Assembly: GCA_947857085.1 (NCBI GenBank)
Contig: CANUDF010000001.1
Coordinates: 3,841 to 67,840, forward strand
DNA: 64,000 nt
DNA from: Candidatus Gastranaerophilales bacterium
Lineage (GTDB): Bacteria > Cyanobacteriota > Vampirovibrionia > Gastranaerophilales > Gastranaerophilaceae
Reading direction: 5' to 3'
Position numbers and translations under genes: made by a program. The notes below the pieces were generated by a model, which searched no databases, was not told where the DNA came from, and was given only the letters and a program-made list of their open reading frames with translations. This document shows, one piece after another, positions 12,998 through 39,262 of this stretch; the stretch's first letter is position 1; each line of letters starts with the position of its first letter.

Positions 12998-13032
12998 TCC
13001 TGAGTATGCTATAATTAATATGAGGTAAAATT

Positions 13033-21092: not shown

Positions 21093-22898
21093 ATGAAAAT
21101 AACAAACAATTTAAATGTAATATCTCCTATTTGCTTTAAGGAAAATTCTAAGATTGATATAGTTAGATTTTTACAAGTTGACAAAACCTTATACCGGGGA
21201 GGGAAACCTAATGAAAAGCAATTAGAAAGTTTAAAAACTATAGGAATAGATACTATTATTGATTTTTCGACAGGTTATGGAGCAAAAACTCAAGGGAGAA
21301 CAGAAAAGCAGATAACTGAAAATCTCAAAATGAATTATATAAACTTGCCCTTTCCATCTTTTGAAAATCCTCCAGAAGAATATATTGCTAAATTCTTTGA
21401 TATTGTAGAAGAGGCTCGAAATAATGGCAAAAAAGTTTTCATTCACTGTACACATGGGAAAGACAGAACTGGTTTATTTGCAGGGATGTATAAACTTAAA
21501 TATGGTTTGGATAATATTGAAAATGTAGTGAATGAAATGTTGACAATAGGACATGATTCAAATGCTAATCCTAATTTGATACCATTTCTCAAAGACTATT
21601 GTAAATCAACAGATTTAAACTTATCACATAGTAATGTGATTGGTAAAAGCCTGATTTTAAATAAAATAATGGATACATCACATTTTGTGAATGAATTTTT
21701 AAAAGAAGATATATTACTAAAATCAGCAAAACAATTAATTGATAGATATCCTGAGTTAAAATGGCTTACTGGAAATGTAAATGCAACTCCGGAAGGTAAA
21801 ATGACAAATAATATAAATTCAATTTCTGAAAATTTATTTGGGAATAAACATATTGAATTTGATAGAACAATCGTAGGAATTAATTGTCTAAAACAGGTTT
21901 TAAACAATGATTATGAGGGCTTTACTAAATGTCAAAAAGATAATGTAAAATTAACCCCTGAAAACTTTGAACAGCTTAGAGATTTTACTTTAAGTGTTCT
22001 AAAAACTCCCGAAGATATTGATGCAATGATTTCCTATACCGTAATAAATGATTTGGGAAAAATCAAAGAATTTGTTACAAATATTGAGAAATCTACAGGT
22101 AAAAAAGTGAAAGATCATGATGAGGCATTGTTAATAGCACTTAAAGTTAGGCCTAATAAAATACCTTCATTCAACAGATTATCTGATGATTATAAAAATA
22201 ATATTTTGAATGGTTTGAGTGCTGATTTTAATCTAGGGCAATTTGTTCAGGCAGAATGCTTAGAAAGAAATTTGACAGGTTTAAAAAATGTTACTGAAAA
22301 AGCTAGGAACTTGTATCTAACTCATATGTTTTATGATGTAGCAGGGGCAGCCGGTCATGTTAATCCTAACGGGTCTCTGGTTATGACAAACCCTGTTTAT
22401 AAAGGTTATATTCAAGGCATAAATGCTATTAAAGAAATAAATCATTCGTCAGAAATAGAAGTTTATAATAAATTTTTAAAGGAAAAAGCAGAAGATTTAC
22501 AACTGCCAATGCAAAATATTAAAGATCGTGCATTGGTAAAATTAGCAGTAATGAGTAGAGCATCCAATCCTCAAGAGGCTCAAAATGTAATATTGGCTTT
22601 TAGTAAGTTAAGCCAAGACGAACAAATAAATTTAATTAATGGCATAAATGGTAATGGTATAGACAGCCCTGGAACACTTCTATACTATGCACCGGCTTTC
22701 ATTCAAAACTGTATAAATGCTGGTGATAAACGTGAAATGTTAGAAAAAGCATATAAAGTCATTAGCAGGATTTACAAACAAAATGCTAATTACAAAAATG
22801 ATGTAAATGTCCTGTCTTTAGCAAATATTGCAAATGCGATAAAAAGTAATTCAAACTTAACCGTTGATGAATTGTATCAATTATTTATTACAGGTTAA
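21093..22898 (+). CDS. Protein-tyrosine/dual-specificity phosphatase domain protein with a large unknown C-terminal domain
   Basis: It has LYRGGKP...IDTIIDF and the HCTHGKDRTG (HCx5R[ST]G) active-site signature in the first ~170 aa. The remaining ~430 aa are unassigned. Confidence 0.65.
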   Translation: MKITNNLNVISPICFKENSKIDIVRFLQVDKTLYRGGKPNEKQLESLKTIGIDTIIDFSTGYGAKTQGRTEKQITENLKMNYINLPFPSFENPPEEYIAKFFDIVEEARNNGKKVFIHCTHGKDRTGLFAGMYKLKYGLDNIENVVNEMLTIGHDSNANPNLIPFLKDYCKSTDLNLSHSNVIGKSLILNKIMDTSHFVNEFLKEDILLKSAKQLIDRYPELKWLTGNVNATPEGKMTNNINSISENLFGNKHIEFDRTIVGINCLKQVLNNDYEGFTKCQKDNVKLTPENFEQLRDFTLSVLKTPEDIDAMISYTVINDLGKIKEFVTNIEKSTGKKVKDHDEALLIALKVRPNKIPSFNRLSDDYKNNILNGLSADFNLGQFVQAECLERNLTGLKNVTEKARNLYLTHMFYDVAGAAGHVNPNGSLVMTNPVYKGYIQGINAIKEINHSSEIEVYNKFLKEKAEDLQLPMQNIKDRALVKLAVMSRASNPQEAQNVILAFSKLSQDEQINLINGINGNGIDSPGTLLYYAPAFIQNCINAGDKREMLEKAYKVISRIYKQNANYKNDVNVLSLANIANAIKSNSNLTVDELYQLFITG

Positions 22899-22977
22899 GC
22901 AGAAAATAAAATTAATACAACAAACAAATATGATACTATAAATGTAGTATCCTACTTACTAAAAGCATATTATATCC

Positions 22978-25017
22978 CTACATATTTAGACTTTTTAATA
23001 TTAATTTTTGCTCTTGTAATGCATTATATAATGAAGATACTGCCCAAGCCAATGGTGCATTTGTGCCTTGTATCATTTTAGTTTTACCATTTACATCCGT
23101 AACATACTGTAAAGCTTCACTGACTGTTACACCTGGCATATCTAATCCATTAGCTTTTATTTGATTTATTTCTTTAGGGTTTTCATCACTTATTCTTGAA
23201 AGTGCTCTATTTAAATATTCTGTCTGTTTAGATTTCAAGGTCTTGATAAGTTGTCTCTCTTCACTTGTAAAATCCCTCTTTTCTTTTTTGGCAAGTTTAA
23301 TAAGTTTCTCAATTTGCTTTCCATATCCTACAGACATATCAGATACCATAAACCATTGAGCTTCTTTATTTGGTGTTGATAATTTCGCTCTTGCAAAAAA
23401 CATATCAGGATCTGAACAATCTTTCGATGCAAAATTATCTAAAATGCCTTTCCAATCCAAATTTAACTTTCCATTATTATCAATTGCATTAAAATAATTT
23501 AAATTTAAATAACTATCAGGAGAGCTGCCATATTCACCATTTTGTAATTCGAATTTAAATGGAGCATAACGAATTACACCATTTTCTCTGACAAGGTTAT
23601 CCTCAACTGATTGCAGGATTTCCATATGTTTCTTCACATCATCTATAACATTATCTGCTAATTTTATATCTGAAGTTGTTATAAAAATAAGAGAAGAATC
23701 ATGAGGCCTTATACCAGGAGCTTCTTCTAAATATGATTTTCGCACTCTTTGAGTTCCGGCTTCTATTAACTTATTGATTTCATCTTCTTTTAATGGATTT
23801 AATTCACTTAATCTGGCTCTAACTTTTTGTATTTCTACATTATTAGAATATTTAGGAGAATACAACATTTTTTTATAAGCTGCTAAAGCACTTCTTATAG
23901 CTTCCGTATCGGATGTCAAGCCACCTTTAAGTGGTATTTCTTCCCAATTGCCAGAAGATGGAGCTGTTGGATAGTCAATAGCTTTAAAATATTTACTCAA
24001 ATTATCAATTGCCTCTAATACATTTTTAGGTATTGAATCCGCTGATTGATAACCATATTTTTTACCTTTTCCTAAACCATCAATAATTCCATTACAAAAT
24101 TCCTTTAATGCAAGGCCATGTGATTCAAGCCTTTTATTATTAAACCAATTTAAATCAGGTTCTAATGTTTTAGGTAAAAATATATGAGGAATACCTTGTA
24201 AAGCATTACCATCACGATAATTTTCAGGAGCTGCTATTAACTTAGCAAAATTATCTTTTTGATAACCATAATATTCTCCAATAGTATTCAATGCCTTGGT
24301 CCATGTTTCAGGTCTTCTTTTTTTCTGAATATCGCCTATTCTCATAATATCAGTAATCCAGGATCTAGCACTCATATCCCAATTTTCATTGGCTCCACAA
24401 GTTTTTGGAATACCCCTGTTTTTATCTAAGACTATTCCAAAATTGTTGTCATCGCTCATGTCAAAAATACGTTTAGATTCCAAATATTTCTGCAACTTTG
24501 TCAAACTATCAGTGTTATATTCTTCTTTCATTAAACCAGCAATTTTTTTATTATGAACATTATAAACTACATTACCTAATTTTAATTTATTGGGCTTATA
24601 CTCTGTTGCTGCAATCATAACTCTTAGAGCATTCTTTAATGCCTCCATATTATTATCTTTATTTATTTTTTCAATAGTTAATATACTATTTATAGTAGTT
24701 AATTCTCTCGGATTTTCCGGATTATTAACAGTAAAAGAATTTGTTCCGAAAAATTTTCTTAACTTAACCAGCCATTTTTCATCATTTGAATCTAGTTTTT
24801 TATTATTTTCAATATTTATTGAAAGTTTTGTCAAAGCTTTTTTAGCAAAATTTAATTTTGAATTCCCTTCAAAAGATGGATAATATGAATTTGAAATTTC
24901 ACTCAATGAGAATAATATATTTTTTCTTTCTTTTGTTGATATAATACTATTATTGTTTTTATAATTTTTAGATTTTATATTGTTAGCTGTATACGATTGA
25001 ACTGCAGATATTTGCAT
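22978..25017 (-). CDS. Glycoside hydrolase family 15 (glucoamylase)-like protein
   Basis: GNWEEIP, HDSSLIFI, GVIRYAPF and TNAPLAWAVSSLY resemble the GH15 (alpha/alpha)6 blocks (WEE, DxSLL, RY, PLxWSxA). I prefer ATG 25017 over the GTG at 25035. Confidence 0.5.
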   Translation of the reverse strand: MQISAVQSYTANNIKSKNYKNNNSIISTKERKNILFSLSEISNSYYPSFEGNSKLNFAKKALTKLSINIENNKKLDSNDEKWLVKLRKFFGTNSFTVNNPENPRELTTINSILTIEKINKDNNMEALKNALRVMIAATEYKPNKLKLGNVVYNVHNKKIAGLMKEEYNTDSLTKLQKYLESKRIFDMSDDNNFGIVLDKNRGIPKTCGANENWDMSARSWITDIMRIGDIQKKRRPETWTKALNTIGEYYGYQKDNFAKLIAAPENYRDGNALQGIPHIFLPKTLEPDLNWFNNKRLESHGLALKEFCNGIIDGLGKGKKYGYQSADSIPKNVLEAIDNLSKYFKAIDYPTAPSSGNWEEIPLKGGLTSDTEAIRSALAAYKKMLYSPKYSNNVEIQKVRARLSELNPLKEDEINKLIEAGTQRVRKSYLEEAPGIRPHDSSLIFITTSDIKLADNVIDDVKKHMEILQSVEDNLVRENGVIRYAPFKFELQNGEYGSSPDSYLNLNYFNAIDNNGKLNLDWKGILDNFASKDCSDPDMFFARAKLSTPNKEAQWFMVSDMSVGYGKQIEKLIKLAKKEKRDFTSEERQLIKTLKSKQTEYLNRALSRISDENPKEINQIKANGLDMPGVTVSEALQYVTDVNGKTKMIQGTNAPLAWAVSSLYNALQEQKLILKSLNM

Positions 25018-25388
25018 AGACCTTCCCACTTTCACATTTACGTAAGTTTTATAGATTCATTTTCTGATATACCCCCAAAAAGATATCTTTTAGATATATG
25101 CCACTATATGCTAGTATTAATAAAACAAAACAAAACAAAAACAAAATATTTTTATTCTAATATGCTAACTTTTTTAATAATTTGTTACAATTGTATCACT
25201 TTTATTCGATTAAAACATAAAAAAGTGTCTGATAGTTGCTATTCAATCCAATCATAGTTTTTGAAGTTCATCAGAATGGATTTCATAAAATATTTCCCAC
25301 TAGGGGATTAAAAAAATTGCTTGCCCGAAATTCTCAAACTAAACGTTAAAATACAATTGTTTAGAGTCTTAACAACAAAATTCAGTCA

Positions 25389-25435
25389 TAAAAAAACTCC
25401 CCAGGTTGGACTCGAACAAACAACCTACTGGTTAA
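25389..25435 (-). repeat. Degenerate copy of the 3' half of tRNA-Asn (distal att-like repeat)
   Basis: This segment matches 39412..39457, which runs from the anticodon loop (TTAA) through the 3' end plus ~8 nt downstream. The copies differ by 2 substitutions and 1 A-run indel. Confidence 0.85.
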
Positions 25436-25568: not shown

Positions 25569-25862
25569 CTAAATAAAAAAGTCCTGATATCCAGTTAAAA
25601 CTCTTAATATATAAAGAATATCATCCTTAACATAGTATATAATTTGGTAATGTTTAGCTACAATACACTCTCTAACATCTCGTCTAACGAAATTAGATTT
25701 TCTGAATCCACTTTTAGGAAATAAAGCTAAAGTATTAAACTTTTTTTCAAAAAGGTCTATCATTTCAATAGCCTTAGCGACATTATCTTGGGCAATAAAA
25801 TCAAAAATATTTTGCATGTCTACTTCAGCAGCAGTTGTAATTATAATATTTAAGTTAGGCAT
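25569..25862 (-). CDS. parE: Type II toxin, ParE/RelE family
   Basis: 97 aa. It overlaps the upstream antitoxin ORF by 8 nt, and its C-terminal YQIIYYVKDDILYILRVLTGYQDF is typical of ParE. Confidence 0.75.
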   Translation of the reverse strand: MPNLNIIITTAAEVDMQNIFDFIAQDNVAKAIEMIDLFEKKFNTLALFPKSGFRKSNFVRRDVRECIVAKHYQIIYYVKDDILYILRVLTGYQDFFI

Positions 25863-26103
25863 ATTTCTTTCTTAAATCCTTAAATACTTCCTCGCTAGAG
25901 CGACCTTTACCAGCTTGCATTTCTTCCCAACCTTTTTCAATTTCAGAATTGAGGTTTTCAATATTTTCTTTAGAAATGTTATTATCTATAAAAGCAACCT
26001 GAACAGCAAATGAAATTGCGTCTTCTAATGTATCAAAAATTCCCTCGGAAACTTTAGCTTTTAAAAGATTTTCTATATTATTTGGTAAAGAAGATATATC
26101 CAT
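25855..26103 (-). CDS. Type II antitoxin, ParD-like
   Basis: 82 aa. It lies immediately upstream of and overlapping the ParE-like ORF. It is small and acidic, with a helical SEGIFDTLEDAISFAV segment. Confidence 0.6.
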   Translation of the reverse strand: MDISSLPNNIENLLKAKVSEGIFDTLEDAISFAVQVAFIDNNISKENIENLNSEIEKGWEEMQAGKGRSSEEVFKDLRKKYA

Positions 26104-26171
26104 AATCTAACCTCATATTAATAAAAATTGTATAATTAGATTATAACAAATTAACGGTAAAATTTCAATAT

Positions 26172-26221
26172 AGCTGTAAAGTAACACTTAGTTTGAGAAA
26201 AAGTAACAGTAGGTTTGAGAA
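26172..26221 (+). repeat. Left-end site pair: two tandem ~22-bp sites (aaagtaacaNtNNgtttgagaa)
   Basis: aaagtaacacttagtttgagaa and aaaagtaacagtaggtttgagaa sit back to back. They are the inverted partners of 38790..38812 and 38918..38940. Confidence 0.7.
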
Positions 26222-26341
26222 TTTTATATGTTTAACTAAAATTTTTATGATGCTAATCAAATAATTTTATACGAAGTTTTCCGATGCAATAATTTCTTGT
26301 AAAAATTTTCTATTGTACTTGATTTAAAGCATTTTGATAGT

Positions 26342-27613
26342 ATGATTATATGCATGGTACCATGCTTAGATGATAGAATTAAAGAAAATAATAATTTTAC
26401 TATTTTAAATTATCAAGGTAGTAAGAAAAATTTGATTGATTTTATTCATAAGCATATAGATAATTTAATCATTCCAGAAAAAGCTTTTTTAGATATTTTT
26501 GCAGGAACTTGTGCTGTTGGCTATAGTTATAAGTCTTGTTGCCCAGTATATGCTAATGATTTAGAATATTATTCTTACTTAATAGCTGATTCTTTATTGA
26601 ATAATTATAATAACTATAATTTTAATAAGATAAAAAAAGAAATAGGCAATCAATTTAAAAACTTATACAATTTAAAATTAAAAAAATATGATAAGTGGAT
26701 TATTGCAGAAGAAACTTTTTTAGAATCCAATAAAATAGAAGATTTAATTGATTTATATAGCTCATATCCAACAATATGGAATAACGCCGAAATGATATTG
26801 GATAAAAAGCAATATATCCTTTTTACGTCATATTATGCTGGTAATTATTTTGGAATAAAACAAGCTATAGAAATTGATTGTTTAAGAAATTTAATTGAAA
26901 ACATTGATAGTAATTTATTCTCAATGTTAATATCATGTTTATTTTTTGCTATGAAAAATTGTGTATTTTCAAAGGATGGTCATATGGCTCAACCGTTAGA
27001 TTTGCATAAAAATGCTTCAAAACTAATATTTAAGCGCAAAAATTCTATTTTGGATAATTTTTATAGCAAATTAACGGAATACTTTTCTTCAGAGTTTATA
27101 AATACTAATTTTTCTAACTCCGCATATAATATGGATTTTGAAAATCTTATAAAGTTAAAAGAAATTCAAGATAATGTTGGACTTATATATGCTGATCCAC
27201 CATATACAGATATGCAATATTCTAGATACTATCATTTATTAAACATTGTTTCTAAATATGATTATCCAAAGCCAACATTAATAAAAAATGTATATACCAA
27301 AGGTTTATATACTGAAGGCAGAAGTCAATCTTTGCTTAGCCAAAAACGATATTGTCTAGAGCATTTTAGTAATCTTATTAACTTTTCAAAAAAATATAAC
27401 AAAAATCTTGCTATCAGCTTTGCATATCCCAATGATCCAATACTTCAAAAAACGGATAGATATGTTATGAGCATTGAAGAAATAGTAAGAGAATGTACCA
27501 AAGTCTTTAAAGAAAAAAATGTAAATGTTGTATCAACAAAATACAATCATTCAAACAATAGAAATACACAAACAAAAAAGGTATTAGAGTATTTAATACT
27601 ATGTAAATATTAA
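26342..27613 (+). CDS. Dam-like (D12 class) N6-adenine DNA methyltransferase
   Basis: It has NYQGSKKN (the Y-x-G-x-K block), FAGTCAV (motif I) and IYADPPY (motif IV), in the order I...IV. At 423 aa it is larger than canonical Dam. Confidence 0.7.
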   Translation: MIICMVPCLDDRIKENNNFTILNYQGSKKNLIDFIHKHIDNLIIPEKAFLDIFAGTCAVGYSYKSCCPVYANDLEYYSYLIADSLLNNYNNYNFNKIKKEIGNQFKNLYNLKLKKYDKWIIAEETFLESNKIEDLIDLYSSYPTIWNNAEMILDKKQYILFTSYYAGNYFGIKQAIEIDCLRNLIENIDSNLFSMLISCLFFAMKNCVFSKDGHMAQPLDLHKNASKLIFKRKNSILDNFYSKLTEYFSSEFINTNFSNSAYNMDFENLIKLKEIQDNVGLIYADPPYTDMQYSRYYHLLNIVSKYDYPKPTLIKNVYTKGLYTEGRSQSLLSQKRYCLEHFSNLINFSKKYNKNLAISFAYPNDPILQKTDRYVMSIEEIVRECTKVFKEKNVNVVSTKYNHSNNRNTQTKKVLEYLILCKY

Positions 27614-27614
27614 T

Positions 27615-29198
27615 ATGGAAATTTGCTTAGAAAAAATAAAAGATAAAATAAATAAAGCGACAGCTACCAATAGAAATGATCTATATGATTCACATATCTA
27701 TTGGTCACAAAAACCTTATAATATTTGTGATATTCTAATAAATTCATTTAGCAAAAAAGGTGATATTGTTTTTGATCCATTTCTAGGTTCTGGAGTAACA
27801 TTATTACAATCTATAAAAAAAGAGAATGATCGTATTGGTATTGGTTGTGAAATTAATGATGCACCTATTTTTATTGTTAATACCCTATTGGCAAAATATG
27901 ATACTAAAAAATTCAAAAAAATATCAGAAGAATTTATTCAACAATTAAAAAAACTATTACCATATTATTACACGAAATGTCCTTATTGTGGGAAAAATGC
28001 AGTAATAACATCTGTAATTTTTGATAAACCGTCAAGAAATGCTGATATTAATATTAAAACAATTAATTTTAGATGTTCTTGTACTAGTAAATCTACAAAA
28101 TTAGCTGATGATAATGATTACAAATCAATAAATATAAATGAAGAAATTAAAAATATTAAAAGCGAGTTTCTAATTCCGAACTCAAAAATAGCCGTATATG
28201 AAAATCAACATATTGATCAGATTTTTACAAAACGAAATTATCTAATTTTAGATAAAATTATAGGAATAATAAACCATCTTGAAAACTATAGTGATTTGTT
28301 TAAATATTTATTAATGTCTATTATTCATTTAGCAAAAATCACTGATACACATTCATCTTCACAGTGGCCGCTTTGGATTCCGAAGAATAACTGCGTTGAA
28401 AAAAACATTATTGATTTAATAGAAAAAAAAGTTATTAAATTTGAGAAAACAATAAAATATTTAAATAATAATTACTCTAACACTAACTCTTATAAATTAT
28501 TGCACAAGGGCAGTCAGTTTATAGATGATACAGATATTTCAGATGAATCCATTCAACTTATTATTACTGATCCTCCATACTTAGGACAAGTTGCATATTC
28601 AGAATATATGCAATTATATAAACCTTTTTTAAATTTAAATTTTAATTTAGACGATGAAATAATTGTGTCATCTGCACCTTCAAGAAATAAAAACGAAGAC
28701 CAATATTTCAAAGACCTAGATAATGTATTTTCAATATGTTCAAAAAAAATGAAAAATGAAGGTTATTTGTGTTTGTATTTTCATGATAGCAGTCTAGAAG
28801 TATGGGATAAATTAATTAATATATTGTCAAAAAATCACTTTAAATATTTATCACAAGCACATATACGAAAATCAAACACTTTAAAGAATATAATAAGCCC
28901 CAAAAAGTCTCTGAATGGAGATTGTATATTATTTTTCCAAAAGGATAATAACATTGCTTCGAATCCTATTGGTTCAGAAGATATATTAGAAATCGAACAA
29001 AATATTATAAAACAAGCGAAATTTTTAGTAAAACGAGCGAATTGCCTTTCTACTCCAGAATTGTATGATTTGGGTCTTATGGAAATTTTAATTCACAATG
29101 GATGGTTAAATCCATTATCAAAAAAATACAAATCTTTAGTTGATATATTTGAAAAGCATTTAATTTGGGATTCAATTAAATCAAAATGGACTCTTTAA
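27615..29198 (+). CDS. Alpha-class amino (N6A/N4C) DNA methyltransferase with Cys-rich insert
   Basis: It has VFDPFLGSGVT (motif I) near the N-terminus, a CPYCG...CSC insert, and IITDPPY (motif IV) about 260 aa later. It starts 1 nt after the upstream MTase stop. Confidence 0.7.
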   Translation: MEICLEKIKDKINKATATNRNDLYDSHIYWSQKPYNICDILINSFSKKGDIVFDPFLGSGVTLLQSIKKENDRIGIGCEINDAPIFIVNTLLAKYDTKKFKKISEEFIQQLKKLLPYYYTKCPYCGKNAVITSVIFDKPSRNADINIKTINFRCSCTSKSTKLADDNDYKSININEEIKNIKSEFLIPNSKIAVYENQHIDQIFTKRNYLILDKIIGIINHLENYSDLFKYLLMSIIHLAKITDTHSSSQWPLWIPKNNCVEKNIIDLIEKKVIKFEKTIKYLNNNYSNTNSYKLLHKGSQFIDDTDISDESIQLIITDPPYLGQVAYSEYMQLYKPFLNLNFNLDDEIIVSSAPSRNKNEDQYFKDLDNVFSICSKKMKNEGYLCLYFHDSSLEVWDKLINILSKNHFKYLSQAHIRKSNTLKNIISPKKSLNGDCILFFQKDNNIASNPIGSEDILEIEQNIIKQAKFLVKRANCLSTPELYDLGLMEILIHNGWLNPLSKKYKSLVDIFEKHLIWDSIKSKWTL

Positions 29199-29200
29199 CA

Positions 29201-31591
29201 CTAGCTTTCTAATATTCCATTATAATATTTGTTTGGAAATGCATCATTTAGTTGTTGGACAATTTCTTGACCATTTATTATTTTAATATCATTTGCGCAG
29301 GCTATTGTTTTTCCATCTTGCGTGTAATCTGATGTTGTAATACATACTGCGATATCGAAACCTCTTCGAATTTTTTCAGAATGTAAACGTTGAATTGGTT
29401 CGCTTCCAACATTGGCAACCCAACGTTTACATTGGAATAAGTATTTAGTTGTATTGCCATTTGTTATTTTTTTTGCGAGCAAATCAACACCTAGGTCTCC
29501 AGAACCTCCAGTATTAATTACATCAATATAGCCTTGCGCTTCGAGTAATGATTTTATAATTATTTCAAAATCCGTCCCCGATAAACATGATACATCTATT
29601 GCATCATCAGAAATTGCGTTTGTATATGTTTTTTTGATATAAACATTTTCATTGCAATCGCAATAATTTTTAATTATTTTTTTTATTTCATTTTGACAAT
29701 TATTATCATCTAAAAAACTATTAATAGAATTAGGATTACCATCACATAGTTTGTTTGCTATTTCAAAATAAAGATCATCTAATACAAATTGTCCGTTTTT
29801 TTCTAGTAATTCTTTTATAAATAACGGCATCAAATCATATAATTTTGTAAATAAATCATTATTGTCTTCAATATCAAGATATAACTTGTTACAGTTTATT
29901 CTCACTATTGCATTTGTGTCTATATGAAAATTTTGTTGTATTACAGAAGTAATCTTCTCAATATCACTTTCGGTTGCAATATAAGATTGTTTCTCTTTCA
30001 AAATGTCTAAAATATATTGCACGCAGGTAGTTAAAGTAATATCAGAATTTGCAGTTTGTAGTATTTTATTATATATTAATTTGACAACTTCAAATTCATA
30101 GTTTTTATTACCTACATACCAATAAGCTTCGGTTTTAGGCAATTTCTCGAAAAATACAATCATTTCTTTTGATAAGGTATTTTTGTATGCAGATTGTTTT
30201 CTGATTGTCGGATCATTTTTATCAATTCCAATTCTGGCAATATACTCAAACCCATTTTTTCTTGCAAGATTTATAATTTGAGTCAAAGTTTCAAAATATT
30301 TTCTTGCACCAAGTTTAATTGTAAAGATAGCAAGTTTGTTATCTTTTAAAACCTTGATAAAGTTTTTAAACATGGTATCTATATCATTAAAATAATTATC
30401 AAGAGATTGTTTGTTTGGTCTTGAAGGTGCATTTGTTAACACTAATTCATTATTAAGCATATCCTCAGTTAATTCAAATTCACCAGGTTTATAAAATTTA
30501 TTCAACCATTTTCTATATAACTGATTCCATTCTAAATATGGCACTTGATCTGTATAAGGGAAGTCAGTATATATCATATCAAATTTTTGTTCTAGGCAAT
30601 TATTTATATAGGCTTGATAAGGAACGTTATATAGTTCGTATAAATTGTTATTTTCCGGATTTGTTGATAATATTTCGCAAAATTCTTCCTGAAATTTAAT
30701 AAGTGCTTCAACTTTGTTTTTAAATATTTCCCAAACATTCGTTTCTTGTGCTCCTTTCATAACAACATGGTATAAACGGTCAGTTGATGAACCATACATT
30801 GCAATTCTAGATAATGCAAGAGATGATACTAACATGAATTCTAAAAAATCTTTTTCCGGACTATTTGTTAAGTTTTTAATACCATTTTGAAGAATCAATA
30901 GTGCTTTTTGATTTCTTTTAGTAAAAAGCCTATTATAATAATCGGCACCAGTTGCTGCAGTTATATTTATTCTGCTATTTTCAATATATTTATCATTAGG
31001 AAAATCTTCAATATGTTCATTATTTATTTCATTTAATTTTTCTAAATCATAGCTAGAAAAATGTTTATATAAATTATGACATTTAGAACACCTTTCAACT
31101 AATTTCACATTTTTCCCATCTTGTATATCTCTATTATCCGTTGGATTAAAATATTCTTCTGTTTGTGGATCATAAAATAATTTTGAAATATAGTTTTTTT
31201 CTCCACAACATTCTGTTTCATATAGATTCATAATTAACGGCTTGGTATCAGTTTCTAATTGATTTAGATAATTTTGTAATATTTCCAAGTTTATTTTCTT
31301 AAATATTGTTTTTACAATAGAAAAAGTATAATTATCAATTTCATTCCCAATGATTTTTTTATTAGCCATTGATGCCGCGATAATAAAAGAACCAGACCCC
31401 ATAAATGGATCATAAAGTACATCATTTGGACCAGCTAGCGTTTCTATGATGTTGTGTGCAATGTCAATTGACTTTCTACCGGGAAAGTTAAACACAGTCT
31501 TAAAAGAATGAGGGACTTTATTTTCAACACCTTCCAAATTAGCAATTAAAGTTCTAATTTTTTGATAAGTTTCTTCATTGATTCTTTTCAT
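29201..31591 (-). CDS. Fusion protein: alpha-class DNA methyltransferase-like module plus C-terminal Mrr-type (PD-(D/E)xK) restriction endonuclease domain
   Basis: The N-terminal module (LYDPFMGSGSF, CC..CSKC insert, IYTDFPY, NAPSRPNK) is colinear with 27615..29198. The C-terminal FEIIIKSLLEAQGY..GGSGDLGVDLL..FQCKRW..VG..CITTSDYT matches the Mrr catalytic domain pattern. Confidence 0.7.
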   Translation of the reverse strand: MKRINEETYQKIRTLIANLEGVENKVPHSFKTVFNFPGRKSIDIAHNIIETLAGPNDVLYDPFMGSGSFIIAASMANKKIIGNEIDNYTFSIVKTIFKKINLEILQNYLNQLETDTKPLIMNLYETECCGEKNYISKLFYDPQTEEYFNPTDNRDIQDGKNVKLVERCSKCHNLYKHFSSYDLEKLNEINNEHIEDFPNDKYIENSRINITAATGADYYNRLFTKRNQKALLILQNGIKNLTNSPEKDFLEFMLVSSLALSRIAMYGSSTDRLYHVVMKGAQETNVWEIFKNKVEALIKFQEEFCEILSTNPENNNLYELYNVPYQAYINNCLEQKFDMIYTDFPYTDQVPYLEWNQLYRKWLNKFYKPGEFELTEDMLNNELVLTNAPSRPNKQSLDNYFNDIDTMFKNFIKVLKDNKLAIFTIKLGARKYFETLTQIINLARKNGFEYIARIGIDKNDPTIRKQSAYKNTLSKEMIVFFEKLPKTEAYWYVGNKNYEFEVVKLIYNKILQTANSDITLTTCVQYILDILKEKQSYIATESDIEKITSVIQQNFHIDTNAIVRINCNKLYLDIEDNNDLFTKLYDLMPLFIKELLEKNGQFVLDDLYFEIANKLCDGNPNSINSFLDDNNCQNEIKKIIKNYCDCNENVYIKKTYTNAISDDAIDVSCLSGTDFEIIIKSLLEAQGYIDVINTGGSGDLGVDLLAKKITNGNTTKYLFQCKRWVANVGSEPIQRLHSEKIRRGFDIAVCITTSDYTQDGKTIACANDIKIINGQEIVQQLNDAFPNKYYNGILES

Positions 31592-31765
31592 ACTTAAACT
31601 ACCTCAACTCTTTAAAACTATTCTTCATTTATCTCATAAAAATATGTTTATATCAATTTAGAATATAAATTTTTGTACTTAAAAATTAAAAAATAATTAA
31701 TTTTGAGCCGATTTGCTAAAATTTAATATATGATTTTCATGAGAAATTGAACTATAGAGTTAAAT

Positions 31766-33442
31766 ATGGTGGAAGAGGAAAAAGTTAAAACTATTAATCT
31801 CAATATAATGTTATTAAAAAATTGTTGTAATTTAAACAATCGAGAAGATTATATTGATAAATATTCAGAAAAAAATATTATAAAAGGTGGCAAGAGCAAT
31901 GATTCTTACTTTTTATATAAAAATGGTCGAGGAAAAAGCAAACCTTCTTGGGTTTTAGAATTTGATGAAAAAGTATTAGATGGGATCAAAGATTCTTTTG
32001 AAGATACTTCTTCTGAAGGACTTTCTGTTATTAAACAGATTAATTACAAAAATATAAATTATTTATTTTCAATAAATTTTGGTCAAGGATGGAGAAATAT
32101 AAAAAAAGACAAAATAGAAGATACTTTTGGTATATATACAACAATTGCAATAATAGAAGAAGGTGCTAAAATACGTAGAGCAGGAACACGAAATATATCA
32201 AGCAATCCTAAAAATACAGAATTTCAACATGCTTTTGAAATTACAAATGAGACATTTAACTCAGAATTAGAAGATAATGATATTATAAGACATTTGAATG
32301 CAACAGCTGATACTTCTACTATTAGCTCGGTCATTGGTAAATATGGTCCTTTAAATATAAGAATGAGGTTTAAGGAATCAGAAATCCCTTGTTGGGACTA
32401 TCTTGATGACAGATTATTGTCATTATTAGAACAGTATTTAAAAATACAAACAAATGAAAGAATTATAAATAAATATTTTAAAGGATTACGCCCATTACCT
32501 AGTGCTAAGCAAAAAGAATTAAATGATAACCTTGACTCTAAAATACTCGAAGATACTTCTAAATTTTTCTTATTTGAACCAGAAATAGACTATGATCCTA
32601 CTATTATTTCAAGTATCAAATACAAATTAAAAGAGGATTCTAGAGCCTCTGAAACATACGAAAATTTAAAATTGGAAGATTATCTAGTTTTAAGAGAATC
32701 CAAAATGCCTTTAAATTTAAATGAAGATAAAGTCTTTTTAATAAATGAAGATGGGAAAAAGTGTAAAGAATGGACCATTTTAAAGTGTCTATATGGCGAA
32801 ATTAAACAAGACAATCAAGTCTATATATTATCAAATTCTGTCTGGTATGGTATGTCTAATGATAAATACGAACGAATTAATAAAAATATTAAAGCGATAC
32901 AAGAAGATTTTTATATAGATGATTGTACCAAGGAATCTACACAAAAAAGTATTATGAAGCAAAAATTAAAAGGTGTAAAACAAATAGCCAAAGAACGAAT
33001 TTTTAATACGGCATTATGTAAACAACTTTCAGGTGAATTATTTGATGAAATTAGTCAACAAATTACTATTGATGGTGACAAGATGGAAGTTTGTGATATT
33101 TTTAATCCAAAAGAAAAAGAATTTATTCATTCAAAAATAAGTTCTGATGCTGCGAAACTTAGCCATCTTTTTAATCAGGGATATGTTTCTGCAAGAGCAT
33201 TCGCATCGATGAAAGAACAATATGTATCATTAGTAAATGAAAAAATGAAAAATGAAGAACATAAATTAGATGATTCACAAAATTCGCATCAAAAATATAC
33301 CATAAGGTATCTAATAATAAATGGTAATACTAAAAATAGATTAACTTTTATAAGCAAGTTAGCTCTTGATAAAATTATTACCGATTTAAAAGGTTTTGGT
33401 TATAATGTTAAATTGTCTTGGGTAAATCAAATCAGTTTATAA
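31766..33442 (+). CDS. Uncharacterised protein, probably DUF6119 / TIGR04141 'sporadically distributed' family
   Basis: At 558 aa, its N-terminal INLNIMLLK..., FSINFGQGW and C-terminal MEVCDIF..FIHSKISSDAAKLSHLFNQGYVSA fit my recollection of that family (E.CD..iH.K...S..LSHLf.QG.vSa). This is not verified by search. Confidence 0.45.
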   Translation: MVEEEKVKTINLNIMLLKNCCNLNNREDYIDKYSEKNIIKGGKSNDSYFLYKNGRGKSKPSWVLEFDEKVLDGIKDSFEDTSSEGLSVIKQINYKNINYLFSINFGQGWRNIKKDKIEDTFGIYTTIAIIEEGAKIRRAGTRNISSNPKNTEFQHAFEITNETFNSELEDNDIIRHLNATADTSTISSVIGKYGPLNIRMRFKESEIPCWDYLDDRLLSLLEQYLKIQTNERIINKYFKGLRPLPSAKQKELNDNLDSKILEDTSKFFLFEPEIDYDPTIISSIKYKLKEDSRASETYENLKLEDYLVLRESKMPLNLNEDKVFLINEDGKKCKEWTILKCLYGEIKQDNQVYILSNSVWYGMSNDKYERINKNIKAIQEDFYIDDCTKESTQKSIMKQKLKGVKQIAKERIFNTALCKQLSGELFDEISQQITIDGDKMEVCDIFNPKEKEFIHSKISSDAAKLSHLFNQGYVSARAFASMKEQYVSLVNEKMKNEEHKLDDSQNSHQKYTIRYLIINGNTKNRLTFISKLALDKIITDLKGFGYNVKLSWVNQISL

Positions 33443-33462
33443 TTAAAAATCAAAAGCAAAAC

Positions 33463-33506
33463 ATTGTTCAAAAAGTGTTCAACAGTGTTCAAAAGGTGTT
33501 TAAAAA
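33463..33506 (+). repeat. Four tandem 10-11-bp repeats (GTGTTCAAMA-like), helically phased
   Basis: The repeats read attgttcaaaaa / gtgttcaaca / gtgttcaaaag / gtgtttaaaaa. They lie in the 147-bp gap between two convergent genes. Confidence 0.7.
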
Positions 33507-33589
33507 TCAAAATAGGTATCAGAGTGCCTTTTTGAAATTTTCATGCAAAATAACGCAAAATAAAAGGAGCTGTTAAACTCCCAAATAGA

Positions 33590-34423
33590 CTACTCATGAA
33601 AAAAATTTTCGGTATCAAATCGTGAAAAGTTTAGGTTTCTGAATTTTTCTATTTTATTATCTGAATATTCTTTCTTCACCCAACGAAGATATGTTTTAGC
33701 AGAAGATACTTTTGCTCGATTAATTTTTATTTTAATCAATCTCTCAAATCTTTGAATTGCAAGTTCTCGGGCTTCACTTAAAGAATACTGTTTTGGCGAA
33801 AGATAATATTCTTTAAAAAAATAATATATTTCACCGGGTTCTCTTGTTTCTGATCCTACAAGATTTATCAAGCCATTTCTTGAAATTTCATATTTAAATT
33901 TATTATATTTATTTAATGTAATATTGGCTGTTTTTAACGTCTTTTTAAGTTCTCTCTCATTCATTCCTTGAGTTTGTTTTAATAACTTGAACATATCTTT
34001 TATATTTTGTTTAGTTTCAGGAGGAGCAAAGAAATAATCAATAAAGCCATCTAACTCATTAATATATTTGGGAAAAACTTCTTTAGGCTTTTTAACTTGA
34101 AATGGCAACATATGACGCATGCAGTCGCTGTCACTTTCTATTGTTTTTTCTTTGGATTTACTTATTTGAGGAATATAAATATATGAATCCCCATTATCTC
34201 TTATAATATTTTTTGACGTTAGTTTTTCTAAAATCGGAATAATTTCTATTTTTGATTTTTCAAGTAGGATTTCTAAATCTTCTACTGTAAAAATATTTAA
34301 TTTCTTAATCGCTATTTCAATATTTTTTTCTAATAAATTTTTCCTATGTCTTGTTTCCACCTTAAAACTCCAGTTCTTGCTTTGTAATTTTCTTATATCC
34401 GTTAGTTTGTGCCAATTCTTCAA
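33590..34423 (-). CDS. Hypothetical HTH/winged-helix-like protein, third gene of the transposition operon
   Basis: The ORF-track ATG 34423 overlaps the ATPase gene by 62 nt. An in-frame GTG at 34360 lies 1 nt after the ATPase stop, with GGAG 7 nt upstream, so it is the likely coupled start. Confidence 0.5.
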   Translation of the reverse strand: MKNWHKLTDIRKLQSKNWSFKVETRHRKNLLEKNIEIAIKKLNIFTVEDLEILLEKSKIEIIPILEKLTSKNIIRDNGDSYIYIPQISKSKEKTIESDSDCMRHMLPFQVKKPKEVFPKYINELDGFIDYFFAPPETKQNIKDMFKLLKQTQGMNERELKKTLKTANITLNKYNKFKYEISRNGLINLVGSETREPGEIYYFFKEYYLSPKQYSLSEARELAIQRFERLIKIKINRAKVSSAKTYLRWVKKEYSDNKIEKFRNLNFSRFDTENFFHE

Positions 34424-35036
34424 TCTTTAAAATATAAATTACAATTTGCCTTAGTCGATTAGCATTTTTTGCAATCATTTCAATTACTTCATCATCAAGC
34501 GGAACTTCGCATAATTTTGTAACAATTTCTTTTATATCTTCAAAATCAAAAGGGACAAATTTATAAATACCCAAAAGCCTGTCATATAAATGCTTAAATC
34601 TTTTTAATTTTTTATCAGCAGCTCCCATTCCAACTAATAAAACAGGAATTCCTGTTTTATCGTGCAAATCACGAACTGTTTCAATAGCTCTTGTAGATTC
34701 TACCAAGTAATCAACTTCATCCACGATTAACATTCTTGGTTTTTCTATTAACTTCGCAACAGCTTGATCAAATAATTCAAAAGATGTTTTCTTTGGCTCT
34801 TCGCCTAATTCCTTAACAAGAGCTTTTAAAAACCAAATTCTTGACATTCCATTTGTTGCTGTAACCAGTATGGCATTTTGGTTTAAAGTCCACCAAAGAA
34901 CAGCATTGCTTTTACCCAATCCTGGTTCACCATATACAAGTCCAATTTTAGGAACATTATATTTTGCATTATTTAATCTTTCTATTAATGAAACAAATGC
35001 TCTAACATTTTTTGTTTTTACAAATGTTCTTCTCAT
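34362..35036 (-). CDS. MuB/TniB-like AAA+ ATPase (transposition target-capture protein)
   Basis: It has Walker A GEPGLGKSN and Walker B LIVDEVDYL. It is 224 aa and lies 12 nt downstream of the transposase gene. Confidence 0.65.
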   Translation of the reverse strand: MRRTFVKTKNVRAFVSLIERLNNAKYNVPKIGLVYGEPGLGKSNAVLWWTLNQNAILVTATNGMSRIWFLKALVKELGEEPKKTSFELFDQAVAKLIEKPRMLIVDEVDYLVESTRAIETVRDLHDKTGIPVLLVGMGAADKKLKRFKHLYDRLLGIYKFVPFDFEDIKEIVTKLCEVPLDDEVIEMIAKNANRLRQIVIYILKIEELAQTNGYKKITKQELEF

Positions 35037-35048
35037 AATTATCTCCCT

Positions 35049-36986
35049 TTAATCCTCAACGCCATACAACAATTTATATTCGGTTGATTTTTTATAATTA
35101 TCCACCCATTTTTGCTCATCTTCAGATAAATCGGGTTTGTTTTTTAGATAATCATATCTTTCGTATTTATTATGAAATACAATTTTTTCAGGTTGAATTT
35201 CATCTTCTTTTAAGCTTTCAATGAGCAACTTTTTATCTTCTATGCTTGGCTTATAAATCACATTATCGGTTTCATTTAGTGCCGGTAAATATACCTTTTC
35301 TTTTTTCAGTTCTCTAAGATATTGTTTTACAGTTTGCTTTTCAAGTTCTTTTTGTTGTTTAATTCGTTGTTTTAATTCTTCCACATCTTTTGCTTCGCCT
35401 GTATAATTAGCAAGTGGATGAATTGGGGCAAGTCTTTCGGCTGTACATAAAAATTCGCCCGACATTGTAAAAACTTTGATATAAGACAAATCAAAAAGAC
35501 TATATTTTATAACAACTTGAGTCCTTAATCCGTATAAACTTTCGTGATAATAATCGGATTTTAAAAATCTTATTCCGTTTCTGCCAATATTTTTAATAAC
35601 ATTTACCATCATTAAATCATCTAGTGTTGAAATATCAATGCCATTACCTTTTCCCGCATCAAATACTTCCCCAATACTTAAACCCTTTACATTAGGACAA
35701 GGTTGTGCATAATGAAAGTTAACCATCCAACGAGTAATATAATTTATAACTTCATCCATTGTAGGAATGTAATTGCTGTGAATTTCTTTGTGTAAGCGTT
35801 CATTGCGTTTTTTATAAGCTGGTTTATTATCAATACAAGAACCCACAAAAGAAGGCAATATACGTTCAAAACTATCCTGCATTTCCCTAAAAAATCTTTC
35901 TATCGGTTTAGCTTTGGCATTATATGGTTTTGCGAAAATCGGAGTTATTCCAAGTTTTATAAATAAACCGCTAATATCATCATCTGCTGTAAAATAATCA
36001 GCCTTATATGCTTTTCCGTTATCTTGATAAACAAATTTTGGATATTTACCCAATGCAATAATTGAATTTCTGAGTGCTGAAGCAATACATTGGGTATTTT
36101 CTTCCAACATAACTTCAAAACCAACCATTGCTCCAGATTTCCAATCTTGATAAGCAGCAATTGTCGGTCTGCATGGTTTGCCTGTAAATGGATTTATAAC
36201 CTCAAATGCAAGCCTATGCCCATCACCAATTAAAACATCTCCTACATTTAATTTTAAAATATCTCTTTCGATATATGGTATAACTTTATCTCTTAAGGCT
36301 TTTGCACCTTCTCTTGCAAATATCCACATATCATAGTGTTCCTGTTTATACTTGGAGATAAACCTCCGATATGTCATCTCGCATGCTAAATTAGTTACAC
36401 CCTGCTGTAATAAAAGATGCTTTGTTAATTTGATAGCTTTTCCAATATTTGGTTGGTTAGGGTTCAGTAATATTTTTAAAACTGTTTCCTTTTCTTTTTC
36501 TGAAAATTTATCTTTATTCGGTTGTGATTTATATTTTGGAGCTAGGACTTTCCAATTATCAGCATTTTCTTTTAGAAGTCTATCCCAACGCATTATTGTT
36601 GATATTGCTATATTGTTAATATTTTCATACTGATTATTTTTATTTGGCATGTTATTATAAACAGATACAAATTCTTTAATAGCATCAACCTTTTTACCTT
36701 TATAATTAACGCAAAAAGCACGCCATTTCATTACAATATCAAATTTAGTTAATGCTCGTTTTTTACTCTTTTCACTAATGGGAGTGTTAAAATTCTCTGT
36801 GGAAATTTCGGTCGAATATAGTTTATTAACTTCATCTTGCCACTCTTGTTCAATAGATGAAACTAAAACTTCATATCTCTGGCAAATTTTTCGCCCTATA
36901 TATTTTCCGCTTGTTACTAATTTGCGAACAGATCTATCAGATACGCCTTTAATTTTTGCAAGCTCGGTTGCTCTAATCCACTCCAT
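35049..36986 (-). CDS. Mu A-like DDE (rve/Mu-transposase) transposase
   Basis: It has an N-terminal HTH (IRATELAKIKGVSDRSVRKL). The DDE core is LIGDGHRLAF..RPTIAAYQDWKSG, VYQDNGKAY and KPIERFFREMQ. The GDG(H/Y)...RP...(W)QD spacing is like phage Mu A. Confidence 0.75.
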   Translation of the reverse strand: MEWIRATELAKIKGVSDRSVRKLVTSGKYIGRKICQRYEVLVSSIEQEWQDEVNKLYSTEISTENFNTPISEKSKKRALTKFDIVMKWRAFCVNYKGKKVDAIKEFVSVYNNMPNKNNQYENINNIAISTIMRWDRLLKENADNWKVLAPKYKSQPNKDKFSEKEKETVLKILLNPNQPNIGKAIKLTKHLLLQQGVTNLACEMTYRRFISKYKQEHYDMWIFAREGAKALRDKVIPYIERDILKLNVGDVLIGDGHRLAFEVINPFTGKPCRPTIAAYQDWKSGAMVGFEVMLEENTQCIASALRNSIIALGKYPKFVYQDNGKAYKADYFTADDDISGLFIKLGITPIFAKPYNAKAKPIERFFREMQDSFERILPSFVGSCIDNKPAYKKRNERLHKEIHSNYIPTMDEVINYITRWMVNFHYAQPCPNVKGLSIGEVFDAGKGNGIDISTLDDLMMVNVIKNIGRNGIRFLKSDYYHESLYGLRTQVVIKYSLFDLSYIKVFTMSGEFLCTAERLAPIHPLANYTGEAKDVEELKQRIKQQKELEKQTVKQYLRELKKEKVYLPALNETDNVIYKPSIEDKKLLIESLKEDEIQPEKIVFHNKYERYDYLKNKPDLSEDEQKWVDNYKKSTEYKLLYGVED

Positions 36987-37135
36987 TAAATCCTCCTGTA
37001 TTTTAATAATTTGTATTGAAGTACAATTTTTGTAGATTAATCAAGATAGGTTTTATATTATACTAAATAGACTAATGGTATAGTGGAATAATATACCATG
37101 TAATTCTAAAGTTTTGTTATAAATTACTCGGGCTG
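36987..37135. promoter_or_regulatory. Divergent control region between the transposase and the Mor-like gene, with an operator-like palindrome
   Basis: There is a perfect 8-bp inverted repeat, atggtata(9 nt)tataccat, at 37076..37100, and a second small palindrome, ttgta-ttgaag-tacaa, near 37011..37026. Confidence 0.35.
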
Positions 37136-37471
37136 ATGGTTATTATAATATTTCTCATGTATAATTGGTTTATGTACGACAAAGAACCTAAATGGGCAAA
37201 ATATATTACAGAAGATTCTATTGATGACTATGGTTTATTAGACTTAGTCAACATAATTGGACTTGAAGCAACAAAAAAGTTGATGATTCATTATGCAGGA
37301 AATAGCATTAGAATTCCAAAATCAGCCAATACAAAATATAAACATCAATATGTTTTAGATAATTATGATGGAACAAAAATCTCTAGAATGAGAACTGCTA
37401 TTGAATGTCAAATTACTGAAAATTATATTTTTAAAATTATGAAAATGTATAAAGATAAAAAGCCAATGTAA
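37136..37471 (+). CDS. Mor-like transcription activator family protein (tentative)
   Basis: At 111 aa, its AGNSIRIPK...YDGTKISRMRTAIECQITENYIFKIM fits the Mor pattern (G...iyIPK...f.G.n...la..y.ls.r.iyrI). It is divergent from the Mu A-like gene. Confidence 0.4.
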   Translation: MVIIIFLMYNWFMYDKEPKWAKYITEDSIDDYGLLDLVNIIGLEATKKLMIHYAGNSIRIPKSANTKYKHQYVLDNYDGTKISRMRTAIECQITENYIFKIMKMYKDKKPM

Positions 37472-37474
37472 AAA

Positions 37475-38677: not shown

Positions 38678-38789
38678 ACTTGCTCCTAAATACTATTATA
38701 TCTAACTATATTATTATAAATAAGCATACAAAACTAGTTCCGATAAATTGGTTCCGCAAATTTAAAAACTTTACTGATTTTTTATAAAT

Positions 38790-38940
38790 TTCTCAAACTC
38801 AATGTTACTTTTAAAAATCAGCTTTAAATATTTATATACATTAAATTTTAGGTGTTTATACATAAAACAAATTTATTGGGTTTGAGCCATAAAAGTTCCG
38901 CAAAATTACATTTTTTAAATTCTCAAACATATGTAATTTG
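38790..38940 (+). repeat. Right-end sites (ttctcaaac...gt(t/a)a(c/t)), inverted relative to 26172..26221
   Basis: The sites are ttctcaaactcaatgttactttt at 38790..38812 and aattctcaaacatatgtaatttg at 38918..38940. The first matches the reverse complement of 26199..26221 at 20 of 23 positions. Confidence 0.65.
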
Positions 38941-39078
38941 CCTTTCCGACCAATCCTGTTTATATTTCCGACCAATCCGTTTGTACTCATTTTATGTGTT
39001 ACTTTACACCTTATGATAATTTTTCCGAAACTTGGTGTTAATTTTTTAATTCCTTGCACAACTGGACTATACCAAAAT

Positions 39079-39262
39079 AATCAAACTATCCGTACACCTT
39101 AAAAACGGTGCTAAAACCAGCTATATTAAGAAAAAATCAAACTATCCGTACAGTCCCCAAAAAGTCCATTTCGGCAGTTTGATTTTTTTGGTAAACTTAA
39201 TTTTCCGACCCAAAAACGCCCTCGCAGAGCGGGCTGTCCAAAATAATCAAAGTATCCGTACA
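39079..39262 (+). repeat. Three direct copies of an 18-bp motif, aatcaaa(c/g)tatccgtaca
   Basis: The copies lie at 39079..39096, 39135..39152 and 39245..39262 (start spacings 56 and 110 bp). The reverse complement begins TGTAC. Confidence 0.8.

Follow-up and report, generated by a model that had tools for sequence, protein, structure and literature searches.

The 64,000-nucleotide window analysed here, from contig CANUDF010000001.1 of a Candidatus Gastranaerophilales assembly, carries four closely packed genes, A to D, within a Tn7/Mu-like transposon that lies beside a tRNA-Asn gene (Table 1). A, B and C make up a self-contained, widespread three-gene restriction-modification (R-M) module, and D is a member of the DUF6119/TIGR04141 family that sits in a replaceable slot of the transposon's cargo. 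An earlier annotation made from the letters alone (the sequence-only reading) had taken the four genes for one functional unit with an unnamed layout. Its open reading frames (ORFs) and spacing are confirmed in the ORF list: 1 nt separates the A stop from the B start, the stop codons of B and C converge at a distance of 2 nt, and C and D diverge from a 174-bp spacer. Its description of the setting as defence-type cargo on a transposon beside a tRNA also holds, given the TniB/Mu-transposase genes, the inverted ends and the tRNA-Asn.

Table 1. Features of the A-D locus and its surroundings, in window coordinates (MTase, methyltransferase; AF2, AlphaFold2).
Feature	Position	Strand	Description	Basis
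A (M1)	26342-27613	+	423 aa; D12-class Dam-like N6-adenine MTase; motifs FAGTCAV, ADPPY	Pfam PF02086, E = 2e-14
B (M2)	27615-29198	+	527 aa; N6_N4 MTase	Pfam PF01555, E = 3e-21, permuted match
C	29201-31591	-	796 aa; N-terminal PF01555 (E = 6e-13) and C-terminal PF04471 Mrr_cat
C residues 1-490	30122-31591	-	MTase-like recognition module, B paralog	BLASTP, 33-member alignment
C residues 670-779	29255-29584	-	Mrr-type PD-(D/E)xK nuclease domain	PF04471, E = 2e-22; D699, D703, Q720-C721-K722 invariant
D	31766-33442	+	558 aa; DUF6119/TIGR04141; stand-alone single-gene module	Pfam, NCBIfam
D residues ~400-558	32963-33439	+	compact alpha/beta domain, putative divergent PD-(D/E)xK-like nuclease	alignment, AF2 models
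Replaceable cargo slot, holding only D	31660-33534		1,875 bp	blastn homology breaks at 31659/31660 and 33534/33535
Tn7/Mu-like transposon carrying all four genes	26175-39008		termini TGTAAAGTAACAC inward from both ends	inverted repeats, sequence read directly
Left-end tandem 22-nt repeat AAAGTAACACnnAGTTTGAGAA	26178-26221	+	putative transposase-binding site	tandem repeat finder
Transposition genes	33590-36986	-	277-aa (TniQ position), 224-aa TniB/AAA_22 ATPase, 645-aa Mu-transposase-C-containing transposase	Pfam
Further cargo/regulatory genes in transposon	37136-38677		Mor-like 111-aa (+); 400-aa PLD-domain protein (-)	Pfam
tRNA-Asn 3'-part duplicate	25391-25435	-	45 nt, 96% identical; far border of tRNA-linked island	direct repeat

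The motifs quoted by the sequence-only reading are all found in the translations. A and B each carry MTase motifs (FAGTCAV and ADPPY in A, FDPFLGSG and TDPPY in B), C carries YDPFMGSG and TDFPY, and the FTKRN, APSR and QCK blocks are likewise present. B and C, which that reading had called paralogs, are indeed related, with 28% identity over 463 aa (BLASTP E = 1e-32), and in both a Cys-rich insert lies between motif I on its N-terminal side and motif IV on its C-terminal side, as the alpha-type order requires. C is, as proposed, the sole gene with a recognisable nuclease domain. The suggested comparison with PADLOC succeeded in part, giving MTase_II matches for A and B (down to E = 2e-26, with B matching PDLC03319 over its full length), a weak mREase_IV match for C (E = 7e-6) and none for D. 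D, previously described as uncharacterised, matches PF19614 (DUF6119) at E = 4e-73 with 247 bits (cut-off 27) over profile positions 2-523 of 524, and TIGR04141 at E = 4e-62 with 210 bits (cut-off 35).

Homologs of C number in the hundreds, are ~795 aa long and 43-83% identical, and occur in several phyla. We assembled a set of 78 C loci, 73 of them contributed by a metagenome scan, and counted linkage to A and B wherever at least 3.2 kb of sequence downstream of C was available, which was the case in 56 loci. B and then A lie downstream of C and convergent with it in 55 of these 56 loci; an apparent additional B match at one locus (L069) is C hitting its own paralogous domain. Gene maps around four C homologs likewise show a D12 MTase and an N6_N4 MTase convergent on C, and in the Petralouisia-type loci of some Firmicutes (L013-L016) A and B are fused into one protein of 959 aa. 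On the Clostridium butyricum plasmid pCFSA3989, the RefSeq annotation from the Prokaryotic Genome Annotation Pipeline already names the trio restriction endonuclease, DNA methyltransferase and DNA adenine methylase, in keeping with an ordinary R-M system and not with an unnamed layout. C thus combines a recognised catalytic domain with co-inheritance of the MTase genes, and by sequence and linkage A-B-C would class as a Type II R-M system. Membership in a BREX or DISARM system was considered and rejected: B matches PglXI and DUF1156-type models over the MTase core only, and none of the partner genes PglZ, BrxC, DrmA and DrmB was detected among the scanned ORFs of 21-39 kb.

Clostridia-type copies of the trio (L013-L016, L051 and L012) carry a conserved gene of ~168 aa that overlaps the start of the endonuclease gene; in L012 the version upstream of the C homolog encodes 156 aa and has a faint HTH_3 match. 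This gene may encode a controller protein. It is missing from the window because the slot that holds D starts 68 bp upstream of C.

The boundaries of that slot were apparent from comparison with two sister elements, L055 (92.6% identity) and L009 (77%), to which the window is homologous over 26175-31659 and again from 33535, just before the 277-aa gene. The left homology break lies 68 bp upstream of the C start, within the 174-bp C/D spacer. The corresponding slot of L055 holds, in the same orientation as D, a gene for a 608-aa protein with a GmrSD_N domain and a full-length match to PADLOC HEC-05 (E = 1e-214), a family that has been equated with the Type IV enzyme BrxU (PMC11411939), and the slot of L009 holds two small unknown genes. 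Nucleotide similarity of D to its relatives in L001 and L018 (71-73%) is confined to the D ORF. No D homolog occurs in any of the 78 C-family loci, and no B or C homolog lies within 10 kb of D in any of 42 D-family loci (8 from metagenomes, 34 from GTDB genomes). Co-occurrence of A-B-C-D across genomes, which the sequence-only reading had offered as a test of its four-gene unit, was therefore not observed, since the four genes are not together outside this genome. A short tandem repeat, TGTTCAAAAAG (~3.9 copies, 33460-33506), lies between the D stop codon at 33442 and the right border of the slot. A promoter and terminator scan of the C/D spacer and D gave nothing better than shuffled sequence in this AT-rich DNA.

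Taken together, the linkage counts and the slot favour a joint reading, to which we assign a probability of about 0.72, in which A-B-C would be a Type II R-M system of the IIS/IIG kind and D an independent defence module with a role of its own, the two being neighbours by chance in the cargo of one transposon.

The D family is large. A D profile searched against 1.84 billion representatives clustered at 50% identity returned 4,499 clusters at E<=1e-3 and 2,151 at E<=1e-30, and among 150 clusters listed nearly all members are 500-590 aa long, match over their full length and have no added domains. The closest relatives of D come from metagenome-assembled genomes (MAGs) of Melainabacteria/Gastranaerophilales. 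The scan of IMG/VR gave no confirmed member, and INPHARED gave one prophage-like match. In the literature, DUF6119, TIGR04141 and the phrase "sporadically distributed protein" turned up as incidental mentions only.

In 36 non-redundant loci D has 216 neighbours, among which the Pfam families Methylase_S (12), ResIII (10), N6_Mtase (7) and HSDR_N (6) occur most often. Type I matches, scored with HsdR, HsdM and HsdS hidden Markov models (HMMs) built locally from the neighbours in D loci, were found in 16 of 36 D loci vs 1 of 78 C loci (Fisher p = 8e-9), a contrast that is inflated because the HMMs come from D loci and many of the C controls are near-duplicates, and that has p = 0.002 after conservative collapse of the redundant controls. 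Several D genes lie within Type I operons of several phyla, on the same strand and at gaps of 7-35 bp. The order is hsdM-Fic-hsdS-D-hsdR-YgjP in Ilyomonas (7 bp between D and hsdR), hsdM-D-hsdS-hsdR in a Flavobacteriaceae MAG (13-bp gap) and hsdS-D-hsdR in a Chitinophagales MAG. Clustering of all neighbours yielded HsdR, HsdM and HsdS as the only recurrent clusters, and a conserved protein partner of D was accordingly rejected.

The closest relatives of D adjoin R-M systems of different types. In L001 the neighbour is an AlwI-type system that has two D12 MTases, in L003-L006 a Type I system together with Abi genes, in L007 a Dcm/FokI-like/Vsr system, in L018 an MTase/HerA cluster along with a Type ISP-like helicase-MTase, and in L020 an N6_Mtase/HsdS pair. 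D also occurs without nearby R-M genes: on an integrative island of Legionella, alongside TIR and deaminase genes on conjugative plasmids, in Senegalimassilia, where a GmrSD gene lies within 5 kb, and in a temperate phage of Pseudomonas, flanked by two integrase genes. These neighbourhoods bear the signature of an autonomous defence-island gene that prefers R-M loci and do not point to a subunit of one particular system. The embedding of D in R-M loci is unreported in the searchable literature; for other defence genes, residence within Type I operons is well established, as with TgvAB, RloF and HEC genes (PMC11411939).

Two further genes were observed after D homologs in related Melainabacteria elements. 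In L001 a 472-aa protein (12190-13605) matches the PADLOC candidate PDC-S31, and in L017 a 579-aa protein (13280-15016) has a GmrSD_N domain. Because such defence-type genes follow D homologs, the cargo regions act as small defence islands.

To examine the fold of D, we used an AF2 model based on a 48-sequence alignment (predicted local distance difference test, pLDDT, 88; predicted template modelling score, pTM, 0.76). In the model the N-terminal part is rich in beta structure, the middle is helical with a small barrel, and the C-terminal part is a compact alpha/beta domain, which reached a pLDDT of 96 when re-predicted alone. Strict conservation concentrates in this last domain: 12 of the 15 invariant columns of the family fall within residues 410-475 (E410, D427, E441, C443, D444, H455, K457, H467, L468, F469, Q471 and S475), the remaining three being F121, G122 and E345, so that nearly all of the fifteen belong to the last 215 residues. 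The domain runs as helix, three strands, helix and strand, with D444 opening a strand and H455-x-K457 on the next, an arrangement that would fit a variant PD-(D/E)xK core; E441, D444, H455-x-K457 and Q471 are compatible with a variant of that motif.

Foldseek, which the sequence-only reading had suggested for the predicted structure, brought resemblances to nucleases, all of them weak (E>=0.01). The best non-trivial matches of D are the CdiA-CT DNase toxins 4zqu and 4g6u (probability 0.87 and 0.72), alongside XPF (2bgw, 0.80) and Mus81 (0.18). Searching with the C-terminal domain alone brought no clearer outcome: the top matches were alpha/beta hydrolases and ABC ATPases of a generic kind, and the only nuclease was XPF, at 0.80. 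Pfam searches with three D fragments at E<=10 returned DUF6119 itself only, and no convincing structural relative was found for the N-terminal 400 residues. Clamp, PAS and RdgC-like matches of the full-length chain were set aside as noise (TM-scores <0.2).

From the model and the neighbourhoods we infer that D would act alone, apart from A-B-C, as a single-polypeptide defence nuclease. Its N-terminal two thirds would sense or bind the target, and its C-terminal domain would be a divergent restriction-endonuclease-like catalytic core. The case for D being a nuclease is about evenly balanced, and that for a defence function stands somewhat better. D would complement R-M, most plausibly against DNA that R-M cannot restrict, because it occupies the niches of Type IV enzymes of the GmrSD/BrxU type. 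Such enzymes, and TgvAB, are found embedded in Type I or BREX/Hma clusters (PMC11411939). D resembles GmrSD/BrxU in being a single gene of ~550 aa with sporadic distribution, in lying between hsd genes and in using the identical transposon slot that holds HEC-05 in L055. It differs from them and from TgvAB in having no sequence or fold similarity and no DUF262, DUF1524, NTPase motif or His-Me finger; its putative core would, unlike theirs, be PD-(D/E)xK-like.

The positions of D inside Type I operons also invite comparison with a guard. In the EcoprrI Type I operon, prrC lies between hsdS and hsdR, and D lies between the same two genes in L039 and L044, at 7-bp gaps; with HsdR, HsdM and HsdS as its sole recurrent neighbours, D might be a PrrC-like latent toxic nuclease, silent while the R-M complex is intact and released by an anti-restriction protein so that infection is aborted. 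D has no homology to PrrC, however, and its partners span Type I, AlwI-type, FokI-type, Type ISP-like and Mrr-type systems, so that a specific physical masking partner is unlikely. Furthermore, about half of the D loci have no nearby R-M gene, and in the L055 slot D is exchanged for an autonomous Type IV enzyme. We therefore regard a guard role as improbable.

A role outside defence is a little less probable still. D could be a factor for mobile-element maintenance or for recombination- or replication-associated DNA processing that hitch-hikes in variable regions, as its presence on transposons, integrative islands, plasmids and a prophage and the weak whole-chain likeness to RdgC-like and sliding-clamp-like folds might suggest. 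Those structural matches have a probability of at most 0.33 (TM <0.2), though, D has no recurrent mobility-gene partner, and in Bacteroidota and Proteobacteria it sits inside chromosomal Type I operons that lack mobility genes.

It is very improbable that A-B-C-D is one integrated system in which D would serve the MTase/Mrr machinery as an obligatory accessory or as a second effector. Tight packing, divergence of C and D from a single spacer and the frequent adjacency of the D family to R-M genes would agree with it, but the absence of D from every C-family locus and of B and C from every D locus, the sister transposons with A-B-C and another gene in the place of D, and the homology break inside the spacer all run counter to it.

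Separating D from the trio leaves C as the endonuclease of the R-M module. In an alignment of 33 C homologs, M1, K2, DPFxGSG and YTDFPYTDQ are invariant, as are four cysteines (C128, C129, C168 and C171) that form a CC...CxxC zinc ribbon and the Mrr residues listed in Table 1. In motif IV of C, the first P of DPPY is replaced by F. Since DFPY is invariant across these homologs, it is a fixed trait of the family and not a local mutation, and since Asp and Tyr are kept, binding of S-adenosylmethionine (AdoMet) and base flipping in C stay plausible. Compared with PDB sequences, C matches only DpnA-type MTases (E ~1e-4), and Pfam finds no Mrr_N domain in it. The literature offered no characterised relative of this architecture, whether sought as Mrr_cat with N6_N4_Mtase or as a Type IIS system with two MTases and Mrr.

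We infer the following mode of action for A-B-C. A and B are separate MTases of the adenine or N4-cytosine type. Each would methylate one strand of one, probably asymmetric, site, which would explain why both are always kept and are fused in some lineages. The N-terminal 490 residues of C are a duplicated B-type MTase and zinc-ribbon module with an intact AdoMet-binding motif, through which C would recognise the site read by B, probably with the target base flipped out. C would be blocked where that base is methylated, and unmodified DNA would be cut by the Mrr domain, probably acting as a dimer. That C is instead a modification-dependent Type IV Mrr-like enzyme reading methylated bases, with A and B as unrelated or orphan methylases, is very improbable: Mrr_cat is typical of Type IV, the weak mREase_IV match points the same way and DFPY could mark a reader rather than a catalyst, yet strict linkage to convergent A and B only a few bases away would be self-destructive for a methyl-dependent nuclease, C lacks Mrr_N and its recognition module is a paralog of B.

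Sliding identity against L055 places a recombination breakpoint inside C at 30175-30424. Identity to L055 is 98-100% across 26175-30174, a stretch that comprises the left end of the transposon together with A, B and the 3' 55% of C, and falls to 72-82% across 30175-31659, which takes in the 5' part of C and the 68 bp upstream. This drop indicates that the recognition half of the endonuclease was exchanged, while B is still 99% identical. The cargo region is clearly undergoing reshuffling.

Type IIS systems in the style of FokI, AlwI and MboII have two MTases or a fused double MTase. A-B-C is comparable in placing two MTases, which belong to different classes and which some relatives carry as a fusion, beside one endonuclease with a recognition part and a separate, single C-terminal PD-(D/E)xK cleavage domain, and also in being mobile and sporadically distributed. 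It departs from them in that C has, as its recognition part, a complete MTase-like module that is a paralog of B and not an unrelated DNA-binding domain, and from FokI in that the cleavage domain is Mrr-type. The BspLU11III-type layout has three genes, encoding two MTases and an R-M fusion. With such systems and with Type IIG/IIC enzymes (Eco57I, BpuSI and MmeI), C shares the union of MTase motifs and a PD-(D/E)xK nuclease, accompanied by stand-alone MTases, but it differs from Type IIG/IIC in its DFPY motif IV. BpuSI-type enzymes begin with the nuclease, which precedes a gamma-class MTase and then a target-recognition domain; C reverses this order, with an alpha-order N6_N4-type module first and the Mrr nuclease last. 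C has the catalytic family (PF04471) and D..QxK motif of Mrr/Type IV enzymes, from which it differs by its cognate, strictly linked MTases, the missing Mrr_N and a genetic logic that would be modification-blocked.

Several points weigh against the joint reading of A-B-C as Type IIS/IIG and D as an independent defence nuclease. For the trio, the asymmetric site is suggested solely by two MTases that differ in class, are always retained and are sometimes fused; the non-canonical DFPY could make C either an active Type IIG-like MTase-nuclease or a catalytically dead reader; and no C-family enzyme is reported in the searchable literature to cut or methylate. For D, the middle catalytic position is His and not Asp or Glu, no Foldseek match reached E<=1e-3 in PDB or BFVD, the D profile had no match among PDB sequences, and hhalign of the D family vs the C family detected no relation to the Mrr domain of C. 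No family among the 5027 models of PADLOC-DB v2 matched D at E<=0.01. The Type I contrast is inflated as described above, about half of the D loci have no R-M gene within 5 kb, and neighbourhood evidence cannot prove the function of D.

These results define A-B-C and D alone as the testable units, and cloning the four genes as one system, as the sequence-only reading had recommended, would mislead. A-B-C represents a very widespread gut-associated R-M family, with homologs across Melainabacteria, Clostridia and other groups. Judging by its sequence, C appears to have been built by duplicating the system's own methyltransferase and adding an Mrr nuclease, and would thus be a natural example of a nuclease that inherits the specificity of its partner methylase; the trio might also supply a new Type IIS/IIG specificity. 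Of the two modules, D offers the lead of greater value, with ~4,500 clusters, no paper in the searchable literature and no PADLOC model. If D defends, it would be a new effector family among the few genes known to ride inside R-M operons. A broader proposal, that DUF6119/TIGR04141 proteins are a new family of autonomous, single-gene anti-phage or anti-plasmid nucleases which came to lie in or next to R-M operons many times in evolution, chiefly between Type I hsd genes, and which cover what escapes R-M (modified or anti-restriction-protected DNA), and that C typifies a class reading its site with a duplicated, DFPY-bearing copy of the partner MTase, is a tentative one.

The transposon that carries these genes is bounded by inverted, TGT-terminated ends at 26175 and 39008, and homology to the sister elements begins at 26175 (L055) and 26172 (L009) by blastn. 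Inverted copies of the 22-nt left-end repeat lie at 38783-38812 and 38981-39011. Homologs of the transposition genes are also present in L009, L018, L026 and L055; the 277-aa protein at the TniQ position had no Pfam match. No 5-bp target-site duplication was found at the ends (ATAGC at 26170-26174 vs CCTTA at 39009-39013), and either the termini are some bases off or the flanks were later rearranged. Rfam identified four tRNAs only in the whole window and no CRISPR/tracrRNA-like element that would mark a CRISPR-associated transposon. The 400-aa protein encoded at 37475-38677 (-) carries a PLD/HKD nuclease-type domain at its N-terminus (PLDc_2, E = 3e-8), followed by a long C-terminal region that has no Pfam match; PADLOC gave it only weak DrmC-type matches, none extending beyond the PLD motif. 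Its gene may be a third piece of defence-type cargo.

The transposon seems to be nested in an older tRNA-linked island. The tRNA scan places the tRNA-Asn at 39419-39490, 14 kb from the 45-nt duplicate of its 3' end, and the guanine-plus-cytosine (GC) content is 23-30% within ~21-39 kb vs 34-40% outside; no integrase gene was seen in the island. Between the tRNA duplicate and the left end of the transposon lies a ParE toxin gene with an upstream 82-aa partner (25569-26103). Between the right end and the tRNA-Asn are three copies of a 22-25-nt repeat, TGTACGGATAGTTTGATTATTTTGG (39075-39262), which open with TGT like Tn7-type end repeats, differ from the repeats of the transposon itself and may be what is left of the end of a different tRNA-targeting element. 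Just beyond the tRNA-repeat border, 21093-25035 holds two large genes at 27-31% GC, one encoding a 685-aa protein with no Pfam or PADLOC match and the other a 601-aa protein in which a dual-specificity phosphatase domain is fused to DUF6829; both look like separately acquired foreign DNA. The best nucleotide match to a named genome is to Candidatus Scatousia excrementigallinarum, with 98.6% identity over 1.9 kb.

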